A stretch of DNA of 64,000 nt from Negaprion brevirostris (lineage: Eukaryota). Both the position numbers and the translations under genes were made by a program. The DNA lies in assembly GCA_030324005.1 (NCBI GenBank), contig JARDVH010000140.1, positions 21,937,561 to 22,001,560 on the forward strand. Direction: 5' to 3'. Below are positions 2,959 through 54,210 of the stretch, piece after piece. Numbering within the stretch: position 1 is the stretch's first letter; each line of letters opens with the position of its first letter. A model generated the notes under the pieces. That model was not told where the DNA came from, searched no databases, and was given only the letters and a program-made list of their open reading frames with translations.

Positions 2959-3101
2959 CTTTCTCCTGAAAATGCCAAACCTAGCACTCGAACTCCTTTT
3001 CCCTGATTCTCCTCCATGAAGTCATCATCGTCTTCTTCGTTCTGCTGGTCAGGTCGATAAGGTGCAACTTTTAGCCAGTTGTAAAGCTTGCGGCTGCAAC
3101 A
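2959..3101 (-). CDS. SUPT6H: SUPT6H coding exon 17 ([47 protein letters not shown])
   Basis: AG/GT boundaries, 143 nt, phase 0 to 2; Spt6 peptide. Confidence 0.96.
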
Positions 3102-3689
3102 CTAGCAAAATAATAAGAGTATAAAATTGGCATTTTTAAGCAGAGGTTAACAAGACACAGAACTCAGGTATTAACATGACCATCAGTCAGTCAACTAGTA
3201 AATCCAGTTATCATTCAAACATTTGGATTCAATCACCAAATTTATTTTTCTACTCGGAAAATCTATTTGTGCAACTTAAAAAGAGCATCTGGTAAAGTAT
3301 CTGCACCAACCTTTTCAGTTTCAGCTTCACTTTTTTTTTTAAGCTTCTCGTGAGACTGAAAATTAATTGACAGCCTACCCTGAAGGGTGGTAGCTTTGAG
3401 TCGTGGGTGCAGATCCTTTTAGATGCAGGGTCACTGACTTCTTCATCCTGGTCGCACAGTGAAGCGTGTGAATTTTTATCATTCAAGTACCCTACCCTAA
3501 ACTATACATTTTTAAAACCTTACTTTTCTTTGACGCATTCTGATGTTCCTTCTATTTACCATCAGATGTACGTACATTTCCAACATCACAGTATAGTATG
3601 GGAACAGGCGTTTTGGGATGGCACTTGAGTAATTGGTGTCCAAATGAATCACAAAATTAGTGAAAAGTCACCATTTGGCCTGAGCTTGC

Positions 3690-4408
3690 AAAACCCTACC
3701 AACTGTCCTGGTTTGAGACAATTCACACCTCTCTAACCTGTGATTATCTCTCTCTCCACGCACATTGACTGCACCTGTAAAGACATGCATTCCAACCATT
3801 AGTAGCAATTGTGACTCTGTCAATGTGCTTGTGAATCCACTTCTCCACTCACTTGACGAAGGAACAGTGCTCCGAAAGCTTGTAATTCCAAATAAACCTA
3901 CACTTCAGCGGTCACAGGCATTTGGCCTCTGATCTTTGGGTAAGCATTCTCCAAGGTGGCCTTCACGATACACGACAGCGCAGAATCGCTGTGTAGAGAC
4001 TGATAGCCAAGTTCCGCACGCATGAGGGCGGCCTCANNNNNNNNNNNNNNNNNNNNNNNNNNNNNNNNNNNNNNNNNNNNNNNNNNNNNNNNNNNNNNNN
4101 NNNNNNNNNNNNNNNNNNNNNNNNNNNNNNNNNNNNNNNNNNNNNNNNGCTTAATGCTATCTCCACTCACACTGTCTGCACCTTTAAGACTTGAATAGCA
4201 GATTAGCTGTAAAGACTCGCATTCTAATCAGTATTCTGTAAACTGTGCGTGCCTTTATATGCCCTGATCAGAACTTTCCACTCACCTGATGAAGGAACAT
4301 TGTTCTGAAAGCTTGTGGGTTTACTATCAATTAAACGTGTAGGACTTTAACCTGGTGTTGTGAGACTTCTTACTGTGTTTGCCCCAGTCCAATGCCGACG
4401 TCTCCACA
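3690..4408 (+). mobile_element. Penelope-like element relic: pLTR (about 3690-3898), GIY-YIG endonuclease C-terminus (3901-4036), N-gap, second pLTR (4149-4408)
   Basis: 3901-4036 translates HFSGHRHLASDLWVSILQGGLHDTRQRRIAV*RLIAKFRTHEGGL(N), the HF..H..D..V.IL / I.KF.T...GLN end of PLE GIY-YIG domains; flanked by two related repeats each ending in a hammerhead-like motif. Confidence 0.85.
4280..4320 (+). ncRNA. Minimal type I hammerhead ribozyme motif in Penelope pLTR
   Basis: ACUCAC (stem I) CUGAUGA A GGAAC-AUU-GUUCU (stem II) GAAA GCU U GUGGGU (stem I'); palindromic AAGCUU replaces stem III. Confidence 0.75.
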
Positions 4409-4746
4409 ATGTCAAAGAATGCCAAGTACGATTTAAAGTAAGGTATTTAATTTTTTTTAAACTGAGTGTGTATATAGATGCTGCTTTTCTGGATTTTACC
4501 ACTCATGTCCCTTCCGGTGAATAGACTAAAATAAATAAAATATTTAACGGGATAAAGGTGGTGTACCTGAAGATTTAGAATGGATCAATATTTTCATGAT
4601 GCAAAAATACAATGTGTGGGAGAAAACATTGAAATGTTGTATTGCTATAGGGGAGGTGGAAGCCACAATGAATCCTAAATATAGCCCACGTTCCTGTCCT
4701 AAAAGGCTTACATCCAGAGCAAAAATTATAACTTTTCATTAAATAC

Positions 4747-4942
4747 CTTGCAAAGATAGTCCCTTGTCTCAATTAGTAATTTGTTTTTCAGCTCCTTGCC
4801 CATCTGTGGGTAAAGGAACTGGTTCAGCGATCGTTCAATTGCCATGCTGCGCTGTCTGTTCCACTCTTGTACTTGATGGCTGAATTCATCACGGTAATAA
4901 AACTGCTTGATTTCATCAAAATAAGTCTGGTCATTCCCGTAA
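4747..4942 (-). CDS. SUPT6H: SUPT6H coding exon 16 ([65 protein letters not shown])
   Basis: AG/GT boundaries, 196 nt, phase 2 to 0; Spt6 peptide. Confidence 0.97.
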
Positions 4943-5184
4943 CTAAAAGATGGGAGATAAAAAATAAACTCATTATCTAATAAGATATCACACTGCACGC
5001 CATGAATACCAAGGAAAGTTTCTCCATTTAAACGTTCACAGGTAGGNNNNNNNNNNCAATCTGAAGCATATTAAATCATCATCTGGCTTCCCAGAAGAAA
5101 GAATACAGGCAGTCACAAAGTATTTCCGGAATCAGTTTAACAAAACTCTCATAACTAGATTAAAATCTCCAGGAAGCACCTAAC

Positions 5185-5470
5185 ATGTATTTGTTCATGA
5201 GATGTGAGTACACTAAAAAGACCTACACCTGTTGCCCATCTCTAATTGCTCGAGGAGCTGGTGATAAGTTGCGTTCTTGAACTGCAGCAATCGGGATGCT
5301 GTGTGGTTTGGAGGGGAAGTTGTTGGTGGTGGTGTTCCCATGCCATTTGCCCTTCTCTTTCTAGGTAGTAAACAGCATGGATTTGGAAAATGAAGGAAGC
5401 TTGGTGAGTTGCTGCAGTGCATCTTGGAGATGGTACACACTGTTTGCCAATGTGTACTTGTTGTGGTGGA
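5185..5470 (-). mobile_element. LINE-A 3' fragment
   Basis: Reverse complement of the 1-420 type sequence; VCTISKMHCSNSP peptide relic. Confidence 0.7.
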
Positions 5471-7142
5471 AGCAGGTGTTTTAGACACTCAAGAGTCCTC
5501 AGGTACCTTGCCAAAGTTAGCTTTGGACACAAAGGATAGGAAATTTCCTAAGCAAGCAGAGGTGGATTTGAGTGCATACAGGAAATTAAATTCCCTGAAA
5601 GTGATGTCAGGTCTGATCGCGACATCATTCCGTCCCTGACAGGTTTCACTAATACGATGCGAACATGGGAAATAGGTGTGGCAGCTCATTTGGAACCTCA
5701 AGTCCACTCTGCTATTCAATCAACCATGGTTGATCTGTTGTGGCCTCAACCTCACTTTCCTTCACTTGGGGAGTGCACAGTGGGGAGATTTTCTTCAGTG
5801 AAGCCGACAGACTGGGAAGACTTTAATCAGTAAAACTGATGAACTCCAGCCGCAGCTGGGCAAGGTGTACTTCTTCCTGGAGAGGGTGCTCTCACTGCTC
5901 GACAGACGATTACCAACTCCTTGGAGGGCATTTAAACTGCCTACTACTTAACTTCAGCTGCTCTTCACTGGCAGCCTCCACCATGATAGGAGTGGTGCTT
6001 ACGGAGCTCCACATTGAACATCTGCTAAGGGATAAAAGGGAAAGCAACACCACCACCAACAGCATCAGATGCCCTTCCACAGGGCACAGGGAATGAATAC
6101 AGGGATCCAGCCCAAGTCAAGACTCTGCCTCTCCCCTAACCCTTGACATAGTGCCTACGGGCATAGAATCAGCTTTCTTCATGTCAGAGCACGTATGAAT
6201 CAGGAAGCCCAGGTTGCCATGATAGGCTGTCACTGAGAGCTATGCTCTTCTGAATAACACTTCCTTTTCACTGGCCTCTTGCCAAAGTTCCATGTTGTCT
6301 TCTCTTGCAAGGATAGAAAGGAGTGGTATGAGCTCACCATGCTGCAGCCCCTCAAATCCTGTTCCAAGTACGAGTGAAACTCCTGGGGTTGGGAGGGGGG
6401 CAATACCAGGTCTCCTCTCCATTTCTGTGGTAGCTGCAGCCTCAAAAATTCAATCACTGGTAAGCCATTGTAACCAATGCCATGGTCCCTTTAATTGGGA
6501 AACCTTCCTTTGGCTGATTCAGTGCACGGTTGTCTGGGAACCAGGAGGTGGGATGCTCATGCCTCGGCTTAGTTAAAGTGCCTTTGCAAAGTCCAATTTA
6601 ACTGTAATCTGGTTTCTGACCCATAAACGGCCCTGCCATTTGTCCAGTGACAAAGTTGGGTAAATTTCATACTAAGTGTCAGTTGCCCTGACAGTACTCA
6701 ATCAGTTATCACACACCAGAGATTGAACTTGTGTTGTCCTGCTCAATTGTTGCCATCGGGAAACCCATATCTCATAGCATTAATGAAGTCACTTCGCAAT
6801 TTCATTACTTTGCGAACACTAAAGAGCTTTGGTAACCAGTTGGATAGAAAAAGTAGGAAAATTGAGCTGTATGAGATAAAGTTACAGGACTCCCCTCCTT
6901 TCTACACAGGGTTAAGTTGTCCCATTTTGTTGGCTTATACTTACTGCTTGGCATCTTGCTCTCCACCAAACCTTGTGGTGTTGTTGTATATAAACTTAAA
7001 TACGATAATGAAAAATTAAGAAACTTTGTCTTTGTTAAACACCAATTCTTAACTGAAAGCGTGCAACTTCAATTTTTATTACATCATATTGAAACATTGA
7101 TCAAATTAAACTGTATTCCGTCTTCCTGCTTATGCTATTTTC

Positions 7143-7331
7143 GATGATGTGGAGATGCCAGCGTTGGACTGGGATAAGCATAGTAAGAAGTCGCACAACA
7201 CCAGGTTAAAGTCCAATAGGTTTATTTGGCAGTCCTGATCAGGTGAGTCACCTGATGAAGGAGCCTGAGACTCTGAAAGCTATTCCTGCCAAATAAACCT
7301 GTTGGACTTTAACCTGGTGTTGTGAGACTTA
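7143..7331. mobile_element. Fold-back Penelope-derived mini-element with 13-bp TSD and degenerate hammerhead core (7252-7278)
   Basis: TSD TTATGCTATTTTC at 7130-7142 and 7332-7344; inverted arms cacaacaccaggttaaagtccaataggtttatttggcag / ctgccaaataaacctgttggactttaacctggtgttgtg; CTGATGA-AGGAG..CTCT-GAAAGCTA. Confidence 0.85.
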
Positions 7332-7788
7332 TTATGCTATTTTCATCAACTTACGGACCAGGTTGGTTAATTGAAGTTTGATCCTCTGAGCTTCTCGGCG
7401 ACAGGTTGAAGAGAAATACTGTTCTGTCGTAAAGAACTAAGTTTGCGTCCTAAAGAATACTTCGATCACCATTTCCACTCTCCTGTTCATTATTTCAGAG
7501 GCCTTTAAATTTTTTGGAAGGGGCGAAGGAAGAGGAGATCCAATCATCTATGAAAATATTCGCCAAGGAATGACATCCAAGATCAGATCAGCCAAAACTT
7601 TAAATTTGTTATCCCAACCTGGACAAACATTAAGCGCCCCCAGTGCATTCATTAGCAGCAAAAGCTTTATGTAATAAATGCCAAATTCTATTTGCAAACA
7701 TCAGTCGCACTGCTCCACTAGATAGAGGGAGTCAATAATATTTGCAACACCTGCCATGAGAATTTAATGTGCTGTTGTAATAACTCAC

Positions 7789-7943
7789 CCCTCAAGTCCT
7801 TTCATATCGATAGAGATGTCAATTGTTAATAAGCCATCGTCTTCGGCAAGGCACATTTTCAGGAACTGATCATCCCTTAATTCTTTGACTGGCTTGTTCT
7901 TTACATATTTGAATGAATAAGCAAAATGTGCTTCATCAATATC
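7789..7943 (-). CDS. SUPT6H: SUPT6H coding exon 15 ([51 protein letters not shown])
   Basis: AG/GT boundaries (gttgcag / gtgagt), 155 nt, phase 0 to 2. Confidence 0.97.
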
Positions 7944-8334
7944 CTGCAACCACAAAAATGGGCCCAGCATTAGAATCTCACAGGGCTCTAAGGTCTCTTT
8001 GAGAAAATTTGTGCTGTATGGTAGATACATTTATTAGGAATATAAAAGATTGCTGAAAACTGTTTGACATAATCATCCTATTTTGCCCAATTTATTTTAA
8101 ACACCAATCTCTACTGCACAGAATTCTGACATATGGCACATCTGAATCTCCACAGGATATTTAGAATTGCCATCTTTCAGGTTGTGTGTAAAATTAGAGA
8201 ATAGTTGCAGCACAGGAATGGACCAAATGGCCCTCTGGGTACCAGCCAGCTCTCTGTAAAAATGACTCGGCTAGTTCCATGATGGCTGTGGCTTTAAATA
8301 TTTATTGTATGAGGTACATTACATCTATCGTAAC

Positions 8335-8490
8335 ATGTCTGCGTGGGTTTCCTCCCACAATCTGAAAGACATGCTGATTAGGTGCACTGGCCCAAACAGG
8401 CGCCGGAATGTGACAACTAGGGGAATTTCGCAGTAACTTCATTGCAGTGTTAATGTAAGCCTTATTTGTGACTAATAAATAAACTTTAAA
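8335..8490 (+). mobile_element. 5'-truncated V-SINE, tail type B
   Basis: tctgcgtgggtttcctcccaca..aaagacatgctgattaggtg V-domain followed by type B tail. Confidence 0.8.
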
Positions 8491-8544
8491 GTTAAAGTTT
8501 AACTTTTAACACCATTAATTTCAGTGTTTGCTCATTAACAGTAT

Positions 8545-8719
8545 GAAGTGGAGATGTCGGTGTTGGACCGGGATAAACACAGTAAGGAGTCTTACAACAT
8601 CAGGTTAAAGTCCAACAAGTCCATTTGAGGAAGGAGCAGCAAGCGCTCCGAAAGCTAGTGGCGTTTGCTACCAAATAGACCTGTTGGACTTTAACCTGAT
8701 GTTGTAAGACATCTTACTG
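8545..8719. mobile_element. Fold-back Penelope-derived mini-element with 12-bp TSD
   Basis: TSD CATTAA(C/T)AGTAT at 8533-8544 and 8720-8731; inverted arms tcttacaacatcaggttaaagtccaaca / tgttggactttaacctgatgttgtaaga. Confidence 0.85.
8621..8661 (+). ncRNA. Minimal type I hammerhead ribozyme motif (C3U variant)
   Basis: CCAU UUGAGGA A GGAGC-AGCAAGC-GCUCC GAAA GCU A GUGG; stems I and II intact, palindromic AGCU in place of stem III. Confidence 0.7.
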
Positions 8720-8779
8720 CATTAATAGTATCTCAGAGGAGCAGATAGTCATTTAAGTCTCAGAACGTGGGAGGAGAGT

Positions 8780-10200: not shown

Positions 10201-10467
<267 letters not shown>

Positions 10468-47940: not shown

Positions 47941-48037
47941 CATCGTCATCTTCCATGAACTTCTTGGGTACTGCTGTTCCTTCTTCATTATACTCTTCCT
48001 CAGACTCCTCAGCTTCACTCTCCACAAAGTCAGACAT
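47941..48037 (-). CDS. SUPT6H: SUPT6H first coding exon ([32 protein letters not shown]); exon spans 47941-48048 with 11 nt of 5' UTR
   Basis: ATG at 48037; conserved [16 protein letters not shown] start; acceptor ttcttccttttcgctgtgcag; donor gtatgt. Confidence 0.97.
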
Positions 48038-48539
48038 CTTTGCAAACCCTGCACAGCGAAAAGGAAGAAATATTTGAAGCAAAACTCAAAGTCTATGTCA
48101 CACCAAAAGCAATTTAACAGGTATAGAAAGAGGGTCTATCTATTTGACTTTTTTTTGGGGGGGGGGAGAAAGAGAAGAGGAATGTTTATTTGAAACAGGT
48201 AACAAAAATGTATACAATAAAATATTTTATTAAGATGACAAAACATGCATGTTTAGTGCAGGAAAAAAGTAGGAAAGCGTACATTTTCTGAGATTAAAAA
48301 CACATAACGGAACTAACTTAATGTATATAAAAGATGTGGTTGACATTTAAAACAACGCTGGGGTTGTAGAATTGATAGGAGTGTGAACCTAAAGATCTGG
48401 GTAATCCTGTTACTGACTGTAAAGGGGGGAGGGGGAGAGGGCCAGTTACAGAGTAAGCAGGGATCAGAGGGAGTGGGTTTTTTGGCGATGGTTGGCAGTT
48501 TGTTTTTCCTGTGTGTGTGAGAGATGGGGATTTTGGGGC

Positions 48540-48900
48540 TGGGAGGATTTGCGGCCTAGTGCGGGTGTGGGAGCCTCCAACGCTGAAACCAGACCAGGTC
48601 AGCACGGCGGCGGTAGCCACAGTTCACACAAACAGCCGACCGTTTCAGAGAAAATATAAAAGAGAAGGGAAATAAATGGAGAGAGAAGGGAGAAGAGATC
48701 AGCACCTTGCTGAAGGTACCGAGAGAAAACGGCCCGATAACTTCCCCCGGACTGACTGAGCGATCCCAGCCCAGCACGGAAATACTTTAAAAATGGCCGC
48801 CCGTGTGCAACCCGCAAACCTCTCCGCGCCTTGTGCAACCCCTAAACCTTCCCCTTCCTGGCACCTCCAGCCCGCCGCCTCCAGTTCCGGGAGAGGAATC
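48540..48900 (-). promoter_or_regulatory. SUPT6H: CpG-rich SUPT6H promoter / non-coding first exon (candidate exon about 48706-48800)
   Basis: Local CpG enrichment; YY1-type AAAATGGCCGC 48790-48800; ETS-like CGGAAA and TTCCGG; first coding exon has an acceptor so an upstream exon is required; donor position uncertain. Confidence 0.55.
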
Positions 48901-49005
48901 AACACCAGAGATGTAAACATCCCAGCACCCAGGCATGTCCCCCCTCTCCCCTTCCAATCCTCATCCATTCTACCGTAGACAAGAGTGTGGCTCTTCCCCC
49001 TTTTG

Positions 49006-49356
49006 ATGTGGAAATAACAGGCGTTGGACTGGAGTAAAGCACAGTAAGAAGTCTCACAAAACCAGGTTTCAGTCCAACAGGTTTATTTGGTAGCACGTGA
49101 ATGGGAGTTCTGATCACAAACAGAGCATATAAAGACACACACTCAGTTTGCAGAATACTGATGAGAATGCGAGTCTTTACAGCTAATCAAGTCTTAAAGG
49201 TGCAGTCACTCACATTGTTTGTNNNNNNNNNNNNNNNNNNNNNNNNNNNNNNNNNNNNNNNNNNNNNNNNNGAAGGGGCAAACCCTGCAAGCTAGTGGCA
49301 TTTACTACCAAATAAACCTATTGGACTTTAACCTGGTGTTGTGAGACTTCTTACCG
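49006..49356. mobile_element. Fold-back Penelope-derived element with perfect 14-bp TSD, in the intergenic promoter region
   Basis: TSD TCTTCCCCCTTTTG at 48992-49005 and 49357-49370; left arm is the reverse complement of the 4149-4408 pLTR, right arm the direct pLTR end. Confidence 0.85.
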
Positions 49357-49799
49357 TCTTCCCCCTTTTGCCAAACACAACTCTACACCTGGACAACAGC
49401 TCTGAAGAAGATTTTGGCAGGAGGGTCGGAAGTGTTAATTTTTTCTCTGCACAGATTGACTCAGTTTATTCAACATTTTCTGCTTATAATATTATTATTG
49501 AAGAGGCGATGAACATACTCCAGACATGCCTGGGTGGGATTTTATAGCCTTGCTCGTCCCAAAATCATAACATCCTGCCCGCGGTCAATGGACCTTCCCA
49601 TTGCCCACTCCGATTCCTCTGGCAGGCGGGGCGGTAAAATTCTGGCCATTAACTCTGTTTCTCCCTCCACAGATGCTGCTAGATCTGCTGAGTTTAGCCA
49701 GCATTTACTATTTTTATATTATTACTCAAGAAGTCATTTTTAATCCAACTATTAACTCTGTTTCACTCTCCTTGGATGTTGCCTGACCAACGTTTTAAG

Positions 49800-50106
49800 T
49801 TTTCAAGTTATTTTTATTATTGTCACAAGTAGGCTTACATTAACATTGCAGTGAAGTTACAGTGAAAATCCCCTAGTCGCTACACTCCACCACCTGTTCA
49901 GTTACAGCGAGGGAGAATTTGTTAGCGTGGCCAATGCACCTAACCAGCACATCTTTCGTAAAGTGGGAGGAAACCGAAACCCCAGAGAAAACCCACGCAG
50001 ACATGGGGAGAATGGGCAGACTCTGCACAGACAGTGACCCAAGCCGAGAATCGAACCAGGTTCCTGGTGCTGTGAGGCAGCAGCGCTAACCACTGCATCA
50101 CCATGC
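49800..50106 (-). mobile_element. Full-length V-SINE, tail type B
   Basis: Reverse complement of the 38614-38925 element. Confidence 0.85.
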
Positions 50107-50307
50107 ATTTATCCAGCATTTTCTGACCCCAATTGCTGGCAGACTGTATATTTCTCACGATAGTTGAGTGGCCAATAGGTTAATCTCAAGGGGATAAAAT
50201 CAAATCTCTGTAATGAAGAAATTATCCAAACTCTTAAATTACAGATTTAATTGATACAAATATTTAAATATATGTATCTAACTCGATACTCCAACATTTC
50301 ATCATAA

Positions 50308-50782
50308 GGTGGCACTGTTATTGCTGGTCTTCAACCTGCCGTTGGCGCTGTTGGAGTTGGTCCTCCAGTCAGGTGGTGGCGCTGTTGGAACTGGTCCTCC
50401 AGTCTGCCGGTGGCTCTCTTGGTGCTGGTCCTCAAGTCTTCAGGTGGCGCTGTTGAGGCTGGTCCTCCAGCCTGGCGGTGGTCCTGTTGGAGCTGGTCCT
50501 CCAGTCTGGCGGTGGCGGTGTTTGAGCTGGTCCTTCAGCCTGCCGGTGGCGCTATTGGAGTTGGTCCTCCAGCCTACCGGTGGCGCTGTTGGATCTGGTC
50601 CTCCAGCTTGGCGGTGGCCCTATGGAAGCTGGTCCTCCAGCGTGCCGGTGGTGCTGTTGTAGTTTGTCCTCCAGCCTGCCGGTGGCGTTGTTGAAGCTGG
50701 TCCTCCAGCCTGCCGGTGGCGCTGTTGAAGCTGGTCCTCCAGCCTGCCGGTGGCGCTGTTGGAGCTGGTCTTCCAGCTTGCT
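50308..50782. repeat. GC-rich minisatellite, 34-bp unit, about 14 copies
   Basis: Consensus GGTGGCGCTGTTGGAGCTGGTCCTCCAGCCTGCC in contiguous tandem copies with scattered substitutions. Confidence 0.92.
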
Positions 50783-50821
50783 GACGTTGGCTGGCAGCCG
50801 GGTGGCGGTTGAAGGAGGAAG

Positions 50822-50882
50822 ATGGAGTCTGCGTTAAAGCCGGTCTCGGGGTTGGTCCGGCTGTGGATTGTTTCCTGGTTTG
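50822..50882 (+). CDS. SDF2: Probable start of SDF2 exon 1 (signal-peptide-like MESALKPVSGLVRLWIVSWF), remainder lost in N-gap 50883-51520
   Basis: Strong Kozak gaagATGG in CpG-rich sequence, hydrophobic N-terminus, upstream of SDF2 exon 2; the conserved VTCGS..HSHDV part is not visible. Confidence 0.6.
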
Positions 50883-52645
50883 NNNNNNNNNNNNNNNNNN
50901 NNNNNNNNNNNNNNNNNNNNNNNNNNNNNNNNNNNNNNNNNNNNNNNNNNNNNNNNNNNNNNNNNNNNNNNNNNNNNNNNNNNNNNNNNNNNNNNNNNNN
51001 NNNNNNNNNNNNNNNNNNNNNNNNNNNNNNNNNNNNNNNNNNNNNNNNNNNNNNNNNNNNNNNNNNNNNNNNNNNNNNNNNNNNNNNNNNNNNNNNNNNN
51101 NNNNNNNNNNNNNNNNNNNNNNNNNNNNNNNNNNNNNNNNNNNNNNNNNNNNNNNNNNNNNNNNNNNNNNNNNNNNNNNNNNNNNNNNNNNNNNNNNNNN
51201 NNNNNNNNNNNNNNNNNNNNNNNNNNNNNNNNNNNNNNNNNNNNNNNNNNNNNNNNNNNNNNNNNNNNNNNNNNNNNNNNNNNNNNNNNNNNNNNNNNNN
51301 NNNNNNNNNNNNNNNNNNNNNNNNNNNNNNNNNNNNNNNNNNNNNNNNNNNNNNNNNNNNNNNNNNNNNNNNNNNNNNNNNNNNNNNNNNNNNNNNNNNN
51401 NNNNNNNNNNNNNNNNNNNNNNNNNNNNNNNNNNNNNNNNNNNNNNNNNNNNNNNNNNNNNNNNNNNNNNNNNNNNNNNNNNNNNNNNNNNNNNNNNNNN
51501 NNNNNNNNNNNNNNNNNNNNAAAAACAAAAAGTACAGAGAAAACTTAAGACACATCAAATCAAAATGTGATTGGCAGGGTCTATAACGCACCTCAGCCCC
51601 TGCGGTGCCCAGCGGGTCTCGTTGGAGTGGGGAGAGAGGGAGGGAATAGGTGATGTCCTGTTCTCTCCTCCTCCCCTCACCACCAACAACCCCACCCCTT
51701 CAAATGGGACTGGGTTGTGTGGGAAATGGGTGAGTTGCCCAGGGCTGTGAAGGTCACTCGCTCCAGAAATGTTCTGGAGGAAATATTAGTTCTTACAGTA
51801 TCACTCATGCACTGCTTACAAATTTGGCAACTGATTAGCTGTGTCAGAGTTAATGCTCCTGATCCCTTGAATACATTAAAAGTGCAAGAAAACAGATACA
51901 ATATAAATTGGTAACTACTGCAATTCAAGCTAAAATCTATAAGAAGGTTCTCAAGCTCAAGTGAAAAAATTCATAGGTGTGATTTAAAAAAAACGAAGCT
52001 GTTATTCTAAGTATAATATGCTCACAGAAGATCAAAACACTACGTTACTTGAAACAGTCAGTATGAATTCTGACCTTGTAGTCTGTACTCAGTACCTATT
52101 GAAGATTGACTGAAATTCGAACCTGGGATACCTGAGCATTCCTCTAGGTTTATGGTTTACTAGTTCAGTGAACCATACCACTGGGCCACAGGAGGAAGCC
52201 AAACACAACAGAGCATGCATCAGCTTCTAAATAAATGGTCAGCACAAAAGCTGGGAACCCAACTTGGCTCAACTGCTTCATAGAATCCCTGCAGTGCGGA
52301 AGGAAGCTATTTGGCCCATCGAGTATGTACCGACCACAATCCCACCCAGCCCCTATTCCCATAAAACCTACTTGGTTTTCTAGGTATCTAATTTTATGCC
52401 GCTTGTCAAGTTATCACACCTTTTGTTCTCAGCGGTGCAATGTATTTTGGGCAATGTGCATTTCAGACATTTTAGTATTTATAATGCCTTCAAGAATTCT
52501 TCAATTGGTACATTTGTGTGATACTGTTTTTGCTCATTTTGACTGTAGATTTAAAATGTTATTTCTGTCTTCAAGGTCAACCCCCTCCCCCCCACATCCG
52601 CAGAGTACATTAGAAACTAATTCATTCATTGGCATTCTGTTCTAG

Positions 52646-52842
52646 GAAGTGGTCAGCAGTCTGTGACTGGAGTGACTGAAGCAGATGACAGCAACAGTTA
52701 CTGGCGAATACGTGGAAAAAGTGATATTGTGTGCCAACGTGGAAATCCGGTAAAATGTGGTGAGACGATTCGATTGACCCATGTCAATACAGGTCGTAAT
52801 TTACACAGTCATCACTTTACATCACCGTTATCAGGAAACCAG
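52646..52842 (+). CDS. SDF2: Stromal cell-derived factor 2 exon 2, MIR domains (SGQQSVTGVTEADDSNSYWRIRGKSDIVCQRGNPVKCGETIRLTHVNTGRNLHSHHFTSPLSGNQ)
   Basis: ttctgttctag acceptor, gtgagt donor, 197 nt, phase 1 to 0; peptide matches SDF2; head-to-head synteny with SUPT6H favours SDF2 over SDF2L1. Confidence 0.95.
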
Positions 52843-53054
52843 GTGAGTTGTCTGCATTGGTAATGAAGACATCTCTTCAGCACCTGCATCCTCTGTGTGA
52901 GCTTTTAAAAATTATAAGTCATCCTAAATTACTAAGCACTTTGCTGAAATTTTCAACTAGAAATAAAATTAGCTTTGGTAGTAACAACACTATCCATTGC
53001 TCTGTAGTCTACCTCTGTCAGGCTCTTTATTTTTATCCAGATTGGCTGAAAACC

Positions 53055-54210
53055 TTTTTATTCATTGACGGGATGTGGGGTCAGTGGCCAGGTCAGCATT
53101 TGTTGCCCATCTTGAATTGCCCTTGAGAAGGTGGTGGTGAGCTACCATTTTAAATGCTACAGTCCCTGTGGCATGAGTACACCTGATGTGGAGTTGTGTA
53201 ACCTCGTGTTGTGAGACTTCTTACTGTATGAGTATACCCACAGTGCTGTTAGGGAGGAGTTCCAGGATTTTGACCCAGCAACAGTGAAGGAATGGCAATA
53301 TATTTTCAAGTCAGGATGGTGAGTAACTTGGAGGGGAAACATGATGCTGCTATATGTCTGCTGTCCTTGTCCTTCTAGATGACAGTGGTTGTGGGTTTCA
53401 AAGGTGCTACCTAAGGATGGTGAGTTCCTTCAGTGCATCTTGTTGATTGTAGCAGCGGTCTGCACCATGTGTCAGTGGTAGTGGGAGGGAATGTGGATGG
53501 AGTGTTAATCGACGGGCTGCTTTGTCCTGGTTGGTATTTCCGAGTGTTATCGGAGCTACACTCCTCCAGTCAGAGTACGCCATCACACTCCTGACTTGTG
53601 CCTTGTAAATTGTGGACTGGCTTTGGAGTGTCAGGAGGTGAGTTACTTACCGCAGGATTCCTAGCCCCTGACGTATGCTAGCAGCCACAATATTTATATG
53701 GCTTGTCCAATTAAATTTCTGGCCAGTGGTAACTCCTGGGATGTTGATAGCGATGGATTCAGCAATGGCAGTGCCATTTAATGTCAAGGGATGATGATTA
53801 CATTTTCTCACTGGGGAGGTTATTGACCGGTGTTTGTGTGGTGTGAATGTTACTTGCCACATGTCAGCTCAAAACTAGATATTGTCCAGTTCTTGCTACA
53901 TTTGTGGTAGGAACCTTAGGAACATGCAAAAATGGAACAACAATTTAGTACTTCTGGCTAAAAGTGGTTTCAGACACTTCAGCCTTGTCTTTTGCACTGA
54001 TGTATTGGGTTGCCTCATCATTGAGAGTGAGGCTGTTCCTGGATCTTCCTCCGGTTATTTAACTGTTCTCCGTAAGTTACAATTGGATGTGGCTGGACTG
54101 CAGAATTTTTTGGTCTGTTTGTTGTGGCTTCAACATGTTGTCACCCAATTTTCAGGTGTCTGTGCTGCTCCTCACATGTCCTTCTGCTATCCTCATTGAA
54201 CCAGGGACGG
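53055..54210 (-). mobile_element. LINE-A fragment
   Basis: Minus-strand WQVTFTPHK..INIPGVTTGQKFNWTSHINIVAA..LGILR and the shared tail. Confidence 0.75.
53184..53227. mobile_element. 44-bp collapsed Penelope-derived insertion with 11-bp TSD inside LINE-A
   Basis: TSD ATGAGTA(C/T)ACC at 53173-53183 and 53228-53238; begins tgatgtggag and ends gtgttgtgagacttcttactgt like the larger fold-back copies. Confidence 0.75.

Follow-up and report, generated by a model that had tools for sequence, protein, structure and literature searches.

Decayed Hammerhead Ribozymes in Truncated Penelope-like Element Insertions Antisense to SUPT6H

Overview

Within a 64,000-nt stretch of contig JARDVH010000140.1 (assembly GCA_030324005.1, positions 21,937,561 to 22,001,560 of the forward strand; 'the window' in the following), we studied four minimal hammerhead ribozyme (min-HHR) motifs, labeled A to D. 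They are best explained as decayed hammerhead-bearing ends of Penelope-like elements (PLEs) that were left by three 5'-truncated insertions antisense in introns of SUPT6H (SPT6) and that are probably inactive fossils; we assign this reading a probability of about 0.86. An original prediction, made from the letters of the window, had seen here a cluster of copies that could dimerise and process the element RNA. This part is not supported, i.e., the stretch consists of three separate insertions (A with an open reading frame (ORF) relic and B; C; D) and not of one ribozyme array. The insertions are diverged by about 7%, run opposite to the host strand, and A and B are damaged crosswise.

Identification of the Hammerhead Motifs

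Both strands of the window were scanned with a strict pattern (YUGANGA, then a stem of 3 bp or more, then GAAAGCU). All four motifs of the original prediction, and no others, are recovered; they have the form YUGANGA-A-stem II-GAAAGCU and lie on the plus strand at 3853 (A), 4286 (B), 7252 (C) and 8625 (D). In 40 order-1 Markov simulated windows, the same pattern matches 0.05 times on average and at most once. Without the GCU requirement, 5 matches face a simulated mean of 2.15. Since A to D are related to each other, the excess shows one non-random family rather than four independent matches.

As predicted, an extra A follows A9 and the palindromic AGCU (15.2-16.2) is present in all four motifs, each without helix III. 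The core (CUGANGA...GAAA...NUH) is intact at 4286 and 7252, while 3853 and 8625 show the U3 variant. Position H17 is U3881 in A, U4314 in B, A7282 in C and A8657 in D, such that the coordinates proposed for two of the cuts, U4314 and A8657, are correct by count. When a fifth copy (E, see below) and the majority sequences of loose ends from four sequencing runs are included, H17 is A, U or C and never G. One of these runs (X1) has 0 differences on its unique contigs; it may be the source of the window and is thus not independent.

Rfam covariance models report 15 matches in the window at E<=10, none of which is a hammerhead, as would be expected for a motif lacking helix III. The best Rfam match (mir-3015 at 8590-8709, 32.7 bits vs. 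a cut-off of 59) was rejected, as it is merely the hairpin of D. DNA pattern scans for further copies found none in metagenome contigs and none in viral contigs; a single match in a bacterial genome (a 20-mer in a Melioribacteraceae metagenome-assembled genome) was taken as chance, and none of the 88 pattern matches of a protein-seeded metagenome scan was confirmed.

Identity of the Element

A 5'-truncated relic of a PLE ORF follows A (3900..4036, plus strand). It holds the C-terminal 45 aa of a GIY-YIG endonuclease, interrupted by a single in-frame stop. Neither the GIY nor the YIG motif is included in the relic (3901-4035), and a Pfam scan of the relic alone reports no family. A protein search with the relic (X at the stop) finds 6 proteins among 12 candidates with 72-80% identity, of which three are named from sharks (Mustelus, Scyliorhinus). 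Judged by these protein matches, the host is likely a shark.

A further search with the relic reaches ORFs with a reverse transcriptase (RT), e.g., P0007 from Heptranchias (RVT_1 E = 5e-9), and the relic aligns at 71% to the last 55 residues of such ORFs. RVT_1 scores above the cut-off in three of five relatives scanned (P0007, P0011, P0012); the Pfam GIY-YIG signal is faint (2/6 relatives, E values of 0.012 and 0.15). The endonuclease motif of the relatives reads YLIRC..C..WYIG, with cysteines between the GIY-like and YIG motifs in all six aligned relatives and a CX4CxxC linker in five of them. A CX2-5CxxC linker is described as a trait of Neptune and Nematis and not of Penelope/Poseidon, and the internal cysteines are likewise given as a Neptune/Nematis trait (PMC8557442). 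Assigned by motif, the source element is likely a PLE with C-terminal endonuclease (EN+) of Neptune/Nematis type.

The link between ORF and ribozyme is provided by P0006, an S. torazame gene model that runs from the ORF end via the untranslated region (UTR) and the hammerhead into the tail within one record, which ties these parts to one element; its tblastn matches cover 3670-3738 and 3843-3884 of the window. No RT and no full ORF is found by tblastn in the 64 kb. The proposed identity, i.e., minimal type I hammerheads carried by PLE pseudo-long terminal repeats (pLTRs) of a probably shark family, is thus upheld, given the fit to the published consensus and the connection to an ORF with RT and GIY-YIG. 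As a side observation, several NCBI shark gene models (P0004, P0006, P0010, P0014, P0019, P0023-P0027) fuse pieces of the endonuclease of this PLE to host genes, which may be either exonisation or annotation artefacts.

Anatomy of the Insertions

The first insertion starts with pLTR copy A (3671..3899, plus strand), which extends from the 3' UTR through the hammerhead to AATAAACCT, has no tail and belongs to another subfamily than B. The relic follows and is separated by an assembly gap of 112 N (4037..4148) from pLTR copy B (4149..4412, plus strand), which ends in a 3' tail of about 34 nt. Beyond 4036, a loose end extends the ORF further towards its end, and none of the contigs listed bridges the gap, whose length would accommodate the rest of the ORF and the start of a pLTR. 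A and B are identical at 118/155 positions (76%) with 43 gap columns, while B agrees with the distant arm 49004-49212 of E at 172/197 positions (87%). This argues against A and B being the twin pLTRs of one element. Thus, from the predicted arrangement of two motifs flanking a GIY-YIG relic in tandem pLTRs, the relic is real but the pLTRs are dissimilar and interrupted by the gap. No target-site duplication (TSD) was found for A-B. The whole looks like a mixed partial tandem across an assembly gap, for which both a template switch between subfamilies and an insertion next to an older copy are possible.

C, D and E are fold-backs. Fold-back C (7144..7331) has an inverted tailed arm (7144-7233), an apex palindrome near 7247 and a forward tail-less arm with the hammerhead (7252-7282); its 49-nt arms are 94% complementary and a 13-bp TSD encloses it (7130-7142 / 7332-7344). 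In fold-back D (8543..8719), an inverted tailed arm (8543-8627) meets a forward tail-less arm with the hammerhead (8625-8657); here, the 55-nt arms are 87% complementary and the 12-bp TSD (8533-8544 / 8720-8731) has one mismatch. The two arms of D have three private variants in common, which suggests a single template. Fold-back E (49004..49356), which the original prediction had missed altogether together with its hammerhead copy, shows an inverted arm (49004-49212), an N gap (49223-49271), a forward arm with a degenerate hammerhead (49272-49294) and a 14-bp TSD (48992-49005 / 49357-49370); the core is missing from its inverted arm at 49097/49096.

That is, all three fold-backs combine a TSD with a one-sided tail: the tail of about 34 nt is present on B and on all three inverted arms and on none of the three forward arms. 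The 3' segment shared by the pLTR copies differs on average by 7.1% from its majority (7 segments of 46 nt); the part from AATAAACC to the tail is independent of the ribozyme. A short piece of the 3' segment without hammerhead was also noticed at 53199-53227. Several contigs from all four runs furthermore join 4373-4377 to 7144/7145, leading from a forward end that lacks the tail into an inverted arm at its tailed side, which suggests that such stumps often adjoin one another elsewhere in the genome.

SUPT6H is encoded on the minus strand (window about 1000-48036, with the start codon region near 48036), and A to D lie antisense to it, spread over three introns; they are therefore unable to cut its pre-mRNA.

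Following published PLE ribozymes, we infer how the source elements may have worked. Stems I and II would form within the motif, the AGCU of one pLTR copy would pair with that of a second to form helix III, and the RNA would be cut after NUH; alternatively, the completion of helix III may be helped by the element's own protein. Reverse transcription from either of two start sites would yield tailed and tail-less ends, and truncation plus fold-back would produce the TSD-flanked palindromes C, D and E as well as the mixed partial tandem of A, relic and B. After insertion, the copies would decay, including the loss of C11.1 at a CpG. A role in dimerisation and processing, as originally proposed for the copies in the window, probably applies to active source elements. 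It is unsettled even there, since in the Anolis element PAc, the one PLE assayed together with its protein, cleavage by the ribozyme is protein-assisted and dispensable for insertion in vitro (PMC11167929).

State of the Individual Copies

Only B is nearly intact among the four copies. This best preserved motif (4280..4320, plus strand) combines a CUGAUGA core with a 6-bp stem I and a 5-bp stem II that is closed by G10.1-U11.1. Motif A (3853..3881, plus strand) has a UUGACGA core, a stem I of 2 contiguous bp and an A-C mismatch in stem II, where it carries the same G>A exchange as B with the partner unchanged. C retains its core and a 4-bp stem II; the 3' strand of stem I is lost, leaving 0 contiguous stem I pairs. 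In D, stem II is perfect and stem I has 4 bp, but U3 and the CCAU strand belong to the inverted arm that ends at 8627, such that its stem I is a junction product rather than a ribozyme-derived helix. The CCAU/GUGG pairing was thus rejected as a conserved stem, the more so as 6% of random 4-mers would pair with GUGG. From the two copies for which stem I pairing had been proposed, only B remains; a stem I of about 3-6 bp is expected of a min-HHR. Copy E is more damaged, i.e., GCAA replaces GAAA and the 5' half falls in the N gap.

The pair G10.1-C11.1 is G-C in 2/5 copies and G-U in 3/5. This C lies in a CpG and is retained as C in the loose-end majorities of all four runs, which read GGAGC with GCUCC or its CpG-decayed form, followed by H17 = C or U and GUG. 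The change from C to U in three copies is consistent with CpG decay after insertion.

Covariation and Folding

In an alignment of the five copies, 33/37 cells pair (89.2%) and 3/37 change on both sides, while controls slid along the sequence pair at 27-54%; 30/500 shuffles reach the observed values. One of the three double-sided cells is the chimeric stem I of D. The other two are stem II changes: in B, A-U replaces G-C, and in E, beside the gap edge, G-C replaces A-U. The compensatory change put forward originally, GGAAC/GUUCU in B (4294) vs. GGAGC/GCUCC in D (8633), is genuine on both sides; the unpartnered G>A of A had been left out. The covariation seen here is suggestive only. Covariation among the source subfamilies is likely, but not established from five sequences. 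The fold z-scores of all five copies range from -1.02 to +0.81, i.e., single-strand z-scores are uninformative.

Some of these data weigh against inactive fossils. B is the sole piece of the five folded whose minimum free energy structure contains stems I and II (z = -0.81); by this model it might cleave if transcribed from the plus strand and provided with a partner. Furthermore, stem II shows 10 differences in 50 positions. Half of them fall at CpG sites, and among the remaining 5, 4 form two compensating pairs. In a neutral simulation, at least two such pairs arise with P = 0.001, 0.009, 0.04 and 0.11 at 6, 10, 15 and 20% divergence, respectively. We consider it more likely that the compensating pairs reflect selection on the source subfamilies than on these copies.

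Alternative Explanations

The strand bias itself could be a trace of ribozyme activity in vivo: as a sense copy would cleave the pre-mRNA, only antisense hammerheads would be kept by the host in SUPT6H introns. We regard this as unlikely, though better placed than any other alternative, and it is compatible with the fossil state of the present copies. The four recognisable cores of A to D are all antisense, neither of the two sense-oriented arms (those inverted in C and D) has a full core, and hammerhead retrozymes are reported as depleted in Xenopus introns (preprint 10.64898/2026.07.22.740005). On the other hand, only three independent events contribute (1/8 by chance), and in all three fold-backs the core-less arm is the tailed inverted one, a pattern for which the mechanism of insertion might suffice.

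The core-less arms also bear on cleavage in a second way. Each of the three lost its full core through a different lesion, and the inverted arm of E (49004-49212) shows the order stem I 5' strand, GTG, 3' segment. In one alignment, the stem I strands are joined as CAC|GTG, exactly C3-H17 is gone (29 nt in B) and the right break coincides with the predicted cut site. In this reading, the reverse transcriptase would have copied the 3' cleavage product up to its 5' end, left it there and switched to the stem I partner. This alignment requires a short GTGCTA-type 3' end, which contig fragments suggest for relatives; E's own forward arm has the longer form. An equally simple alignment needs one 35-nt deletion and one substitution. 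That this single arm is a fossil of in vivo ribozyme cleavage thus appears doubtful, a little more so than a host-made strand bias. Cleavage-site junctions of this kind were not found in the openly accessible literature that we searched, and the two candidates for the E junction among read-through peptides gave no score, which is weak evidence. Should such junctions turn up repeatedly across the genome, this would amount to genomic evidence of cleavage by PLE hammerheads in the course of retrotransposition.

For the fold-backs, we also considered that C, D and E form a self-propagating palindromic mini-element, similar to miniature inverted-repeat transposable elements or retrozymes, instead of one-off truncation products. 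All three are similar palindromes of 180-350 bp within a TSD, and their outer ends are fixed, as is also visible from loose ends that pile up at 7144 and 7334 in all four runs. However, the centres of C, D and E all differ, the private variants common to D's arms are expected if one template made both, and an inverted pLTR with a tail is a described PLE pattern (PMC8557442, PMC3846280). A mini-element is therefore improbable and truncation products are preferred.

Slightly less probable again is that A and B, 433 nt apart, still act as a dimeric hammerhead on plus-strand transcripts and that the cluster processes element or antisense RNA. Both are on the same strand at close spacing, and the 5' strand of A can pair over 6 bp with the 3' strand of B. 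Dimers of a Schistosoma min-HHR cleave weakly in vitro, and a U3-G8 core is listed for a PLE-linked motif of Saccoglossus (both PMC4209133). The damage is nevertheless crosswise: a cut at U4314 would need the U3 core and mismatched stem II of A, while the good core of B, cutting at U3881, faces the 2-bp stem I of A. In addition, the active A-B dimer is modelled at -8.1 kcal/mol compared to -15.5 kcal/mol for two monomers and is the second weakest of 7 pairs. All 7 modelled dimers fall short of their monomers in this model without positive control, so the ranking alone counts. Finally, the pair spans the N gap and two subfamilies, with neither RT nor full ORF in the window.

Chance matches without ribozyme ancestry, to which the absent Rfam hammerhead, the inconspicuous z-scores and the non-independence of the copies might point, are hardly credible, as even one match is 20 times the null mean, the motifs sit inside a PLE pLTR and they fit published consensus features, including an H17 that is never G.

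Comparison with Known Systems

Min-HHRs in pLTRs of metazoan PLEs have been known since 2014 (Cervera and De la Pena, PMC4209133). The published motif agrees with the window copies in its layout (CUGANGA-H-G..C-GAAA-N-palindrome-NUH, an extra nucleotide after A9, no helix III) and in its occurrence mostly as single motifs in truncated copies. Positions 15.2-16.2 are more often C-G there but G-C here, as in the listed turtle motif, which reads GAAAGCUU and then CCAAAUAAA. Further differences are the shark-type host and the decay of the copies; the words 'shark' and 'Callorhinchus' are absent from the one supplement file of PMC4209133 that was searched. In the published model, helix III is completed between two copies via the palindrome (PMC4209133; reviewed in PMC6765202). 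A Schistosoma min-HHR stays uncleaved as monomer and is weakly cleaved as dimer (PMC4209133).

With EN+ PLEs (Craig et al. 2021, PMC8557442), the relatives share RT, a CX2-5CxxC linker and GIY-YIG with internal cysteines, and the window shares partial tandems, a truncated copy in inverted orientation next to another, and a one-sided tail of 30-40 bp. In contrast to these, only 45 aa of the ORF are left here and the two tandem pLTRs stem from different subfamilies. Adineta Penelope (Arkhipova et al. 2013, PMC3846280) likewise shows an inverted pLTR whose junction is palindromic. One inverted copy carries a tail there, and a TSD is present that is given as 8-10 bp, compared to 12-14 bp here, where the inserts are stumps without ORF. 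The Anolis Poseidon element PAc (Frangieh et al. 2024, PMC11167929) carries a pLTR hammerhead and has two 3' end classes separated by the tail, which is set by two reverse-transcription start sites. PAc belongs to a different clade without the linker motif, and its ribozyme was assayed, with no RNA reads reported to end at the cut.

Non-LTR retrozymes (preprint 10.64898/2026.07.22.740005) are, as here, PLE-derived, non-coding and equipped with a type I hammerhead; the preprint finds hammerhead tandem repeats in its one sampled chondrichthyan. Retrozymes form head-to-tail arrays with one ribozyme per unit. In contrast, each of C, D and E is a lone palindrome, and the partial tandem A-B is mixed and includes an ORF relic. 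Since the window holds no array of at least two consecutive tandem units with complete hammerheads, we rejected a retrozyme identity.

Apart from the 2026 preprint, the literature searched yielded no shark-specific report of a PLE hammerhead, where Repbase/Dfam, subscription papers and bioRxiv supplements lay outside the search and may list one; 'shark' in PMC6155905 refers only to the shape of a ribozyme. We thus regard the window copies as an ordinary further instance of the PLE hammerheads known since 2014, in a probably shark family. The finding extends the 2014 observation to an extremely abundant family and its significance is small as it stands. Given the many copies with fixed ends, counting alone could show in sharks if PLE hammerheads are cleaving in vivo, and if introns are cleared of sense-strand copies by the host.

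Abundance, Age and Genomic Surroundings

The PLE family is very abundant: over element parts, the summed contig depth exceeds that of neighbouring unique bins by a factor of about 10^3 to 10^5 in all four runs, which is not a copy number. The right junction of D is bridged by at least 31 letters per side in all four runs, two of which carry other organism labels. The intron contigs of these two differ at 49/1734 and 20/775 letters (2.6-2.8%), i.e., the D insertion is common to different species labels. The left junction of A is bridged in 2/4 runs; for B and C, the junction overlaps are at or below the limit of the method among the contigs listed. A SINE-like (short interspersed nuclear element) repeat that is also very abundant, with the highest contig depth, is found at 8330-8490, about 50 bp before D, and again at 1778, 16049, 37371, 38834 and 49813.

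Four coding exons of SUPT6H on the minus strand surround the insertions, with approximate bounds. Those at 4745..4945 (E = 1.5e-32), 7788..7946 (E = 3e-25) and 10255..10398 (E = 5.4e-24) match SPT6 in PDB, and the frame CSRKLYNW... of the exon at 2980..3097 carries on from the SPT6 residues at the end of the first of these matches (4745..4945). On the sense strand of SUPT6H, the fold-backs 7144-7335 and 8543-8719 form long hairpins of about -94 and -92 kcal/mol, respectively, which are possible double-stranded RNA targets in the modelled pre-mRNA.

Beyond SUPT6H, a plus-strand exon of an SDF2-like gene with MIR domain lies at 52621-52860, i.e., head to head with SUPT6H, as is presumably also the case at the human locus. 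A motif search of 48300-53000 found no first exon of this gene, which may sit in a 638-N gap (50883-51520). A GC-rich array of 34-bp tandem repeats (50295-50849) adjoins this gap. At the other end of the window, an open frame on the plus strand (2032-2352) resembles a processed pseudogene of ribosomal protein S27.

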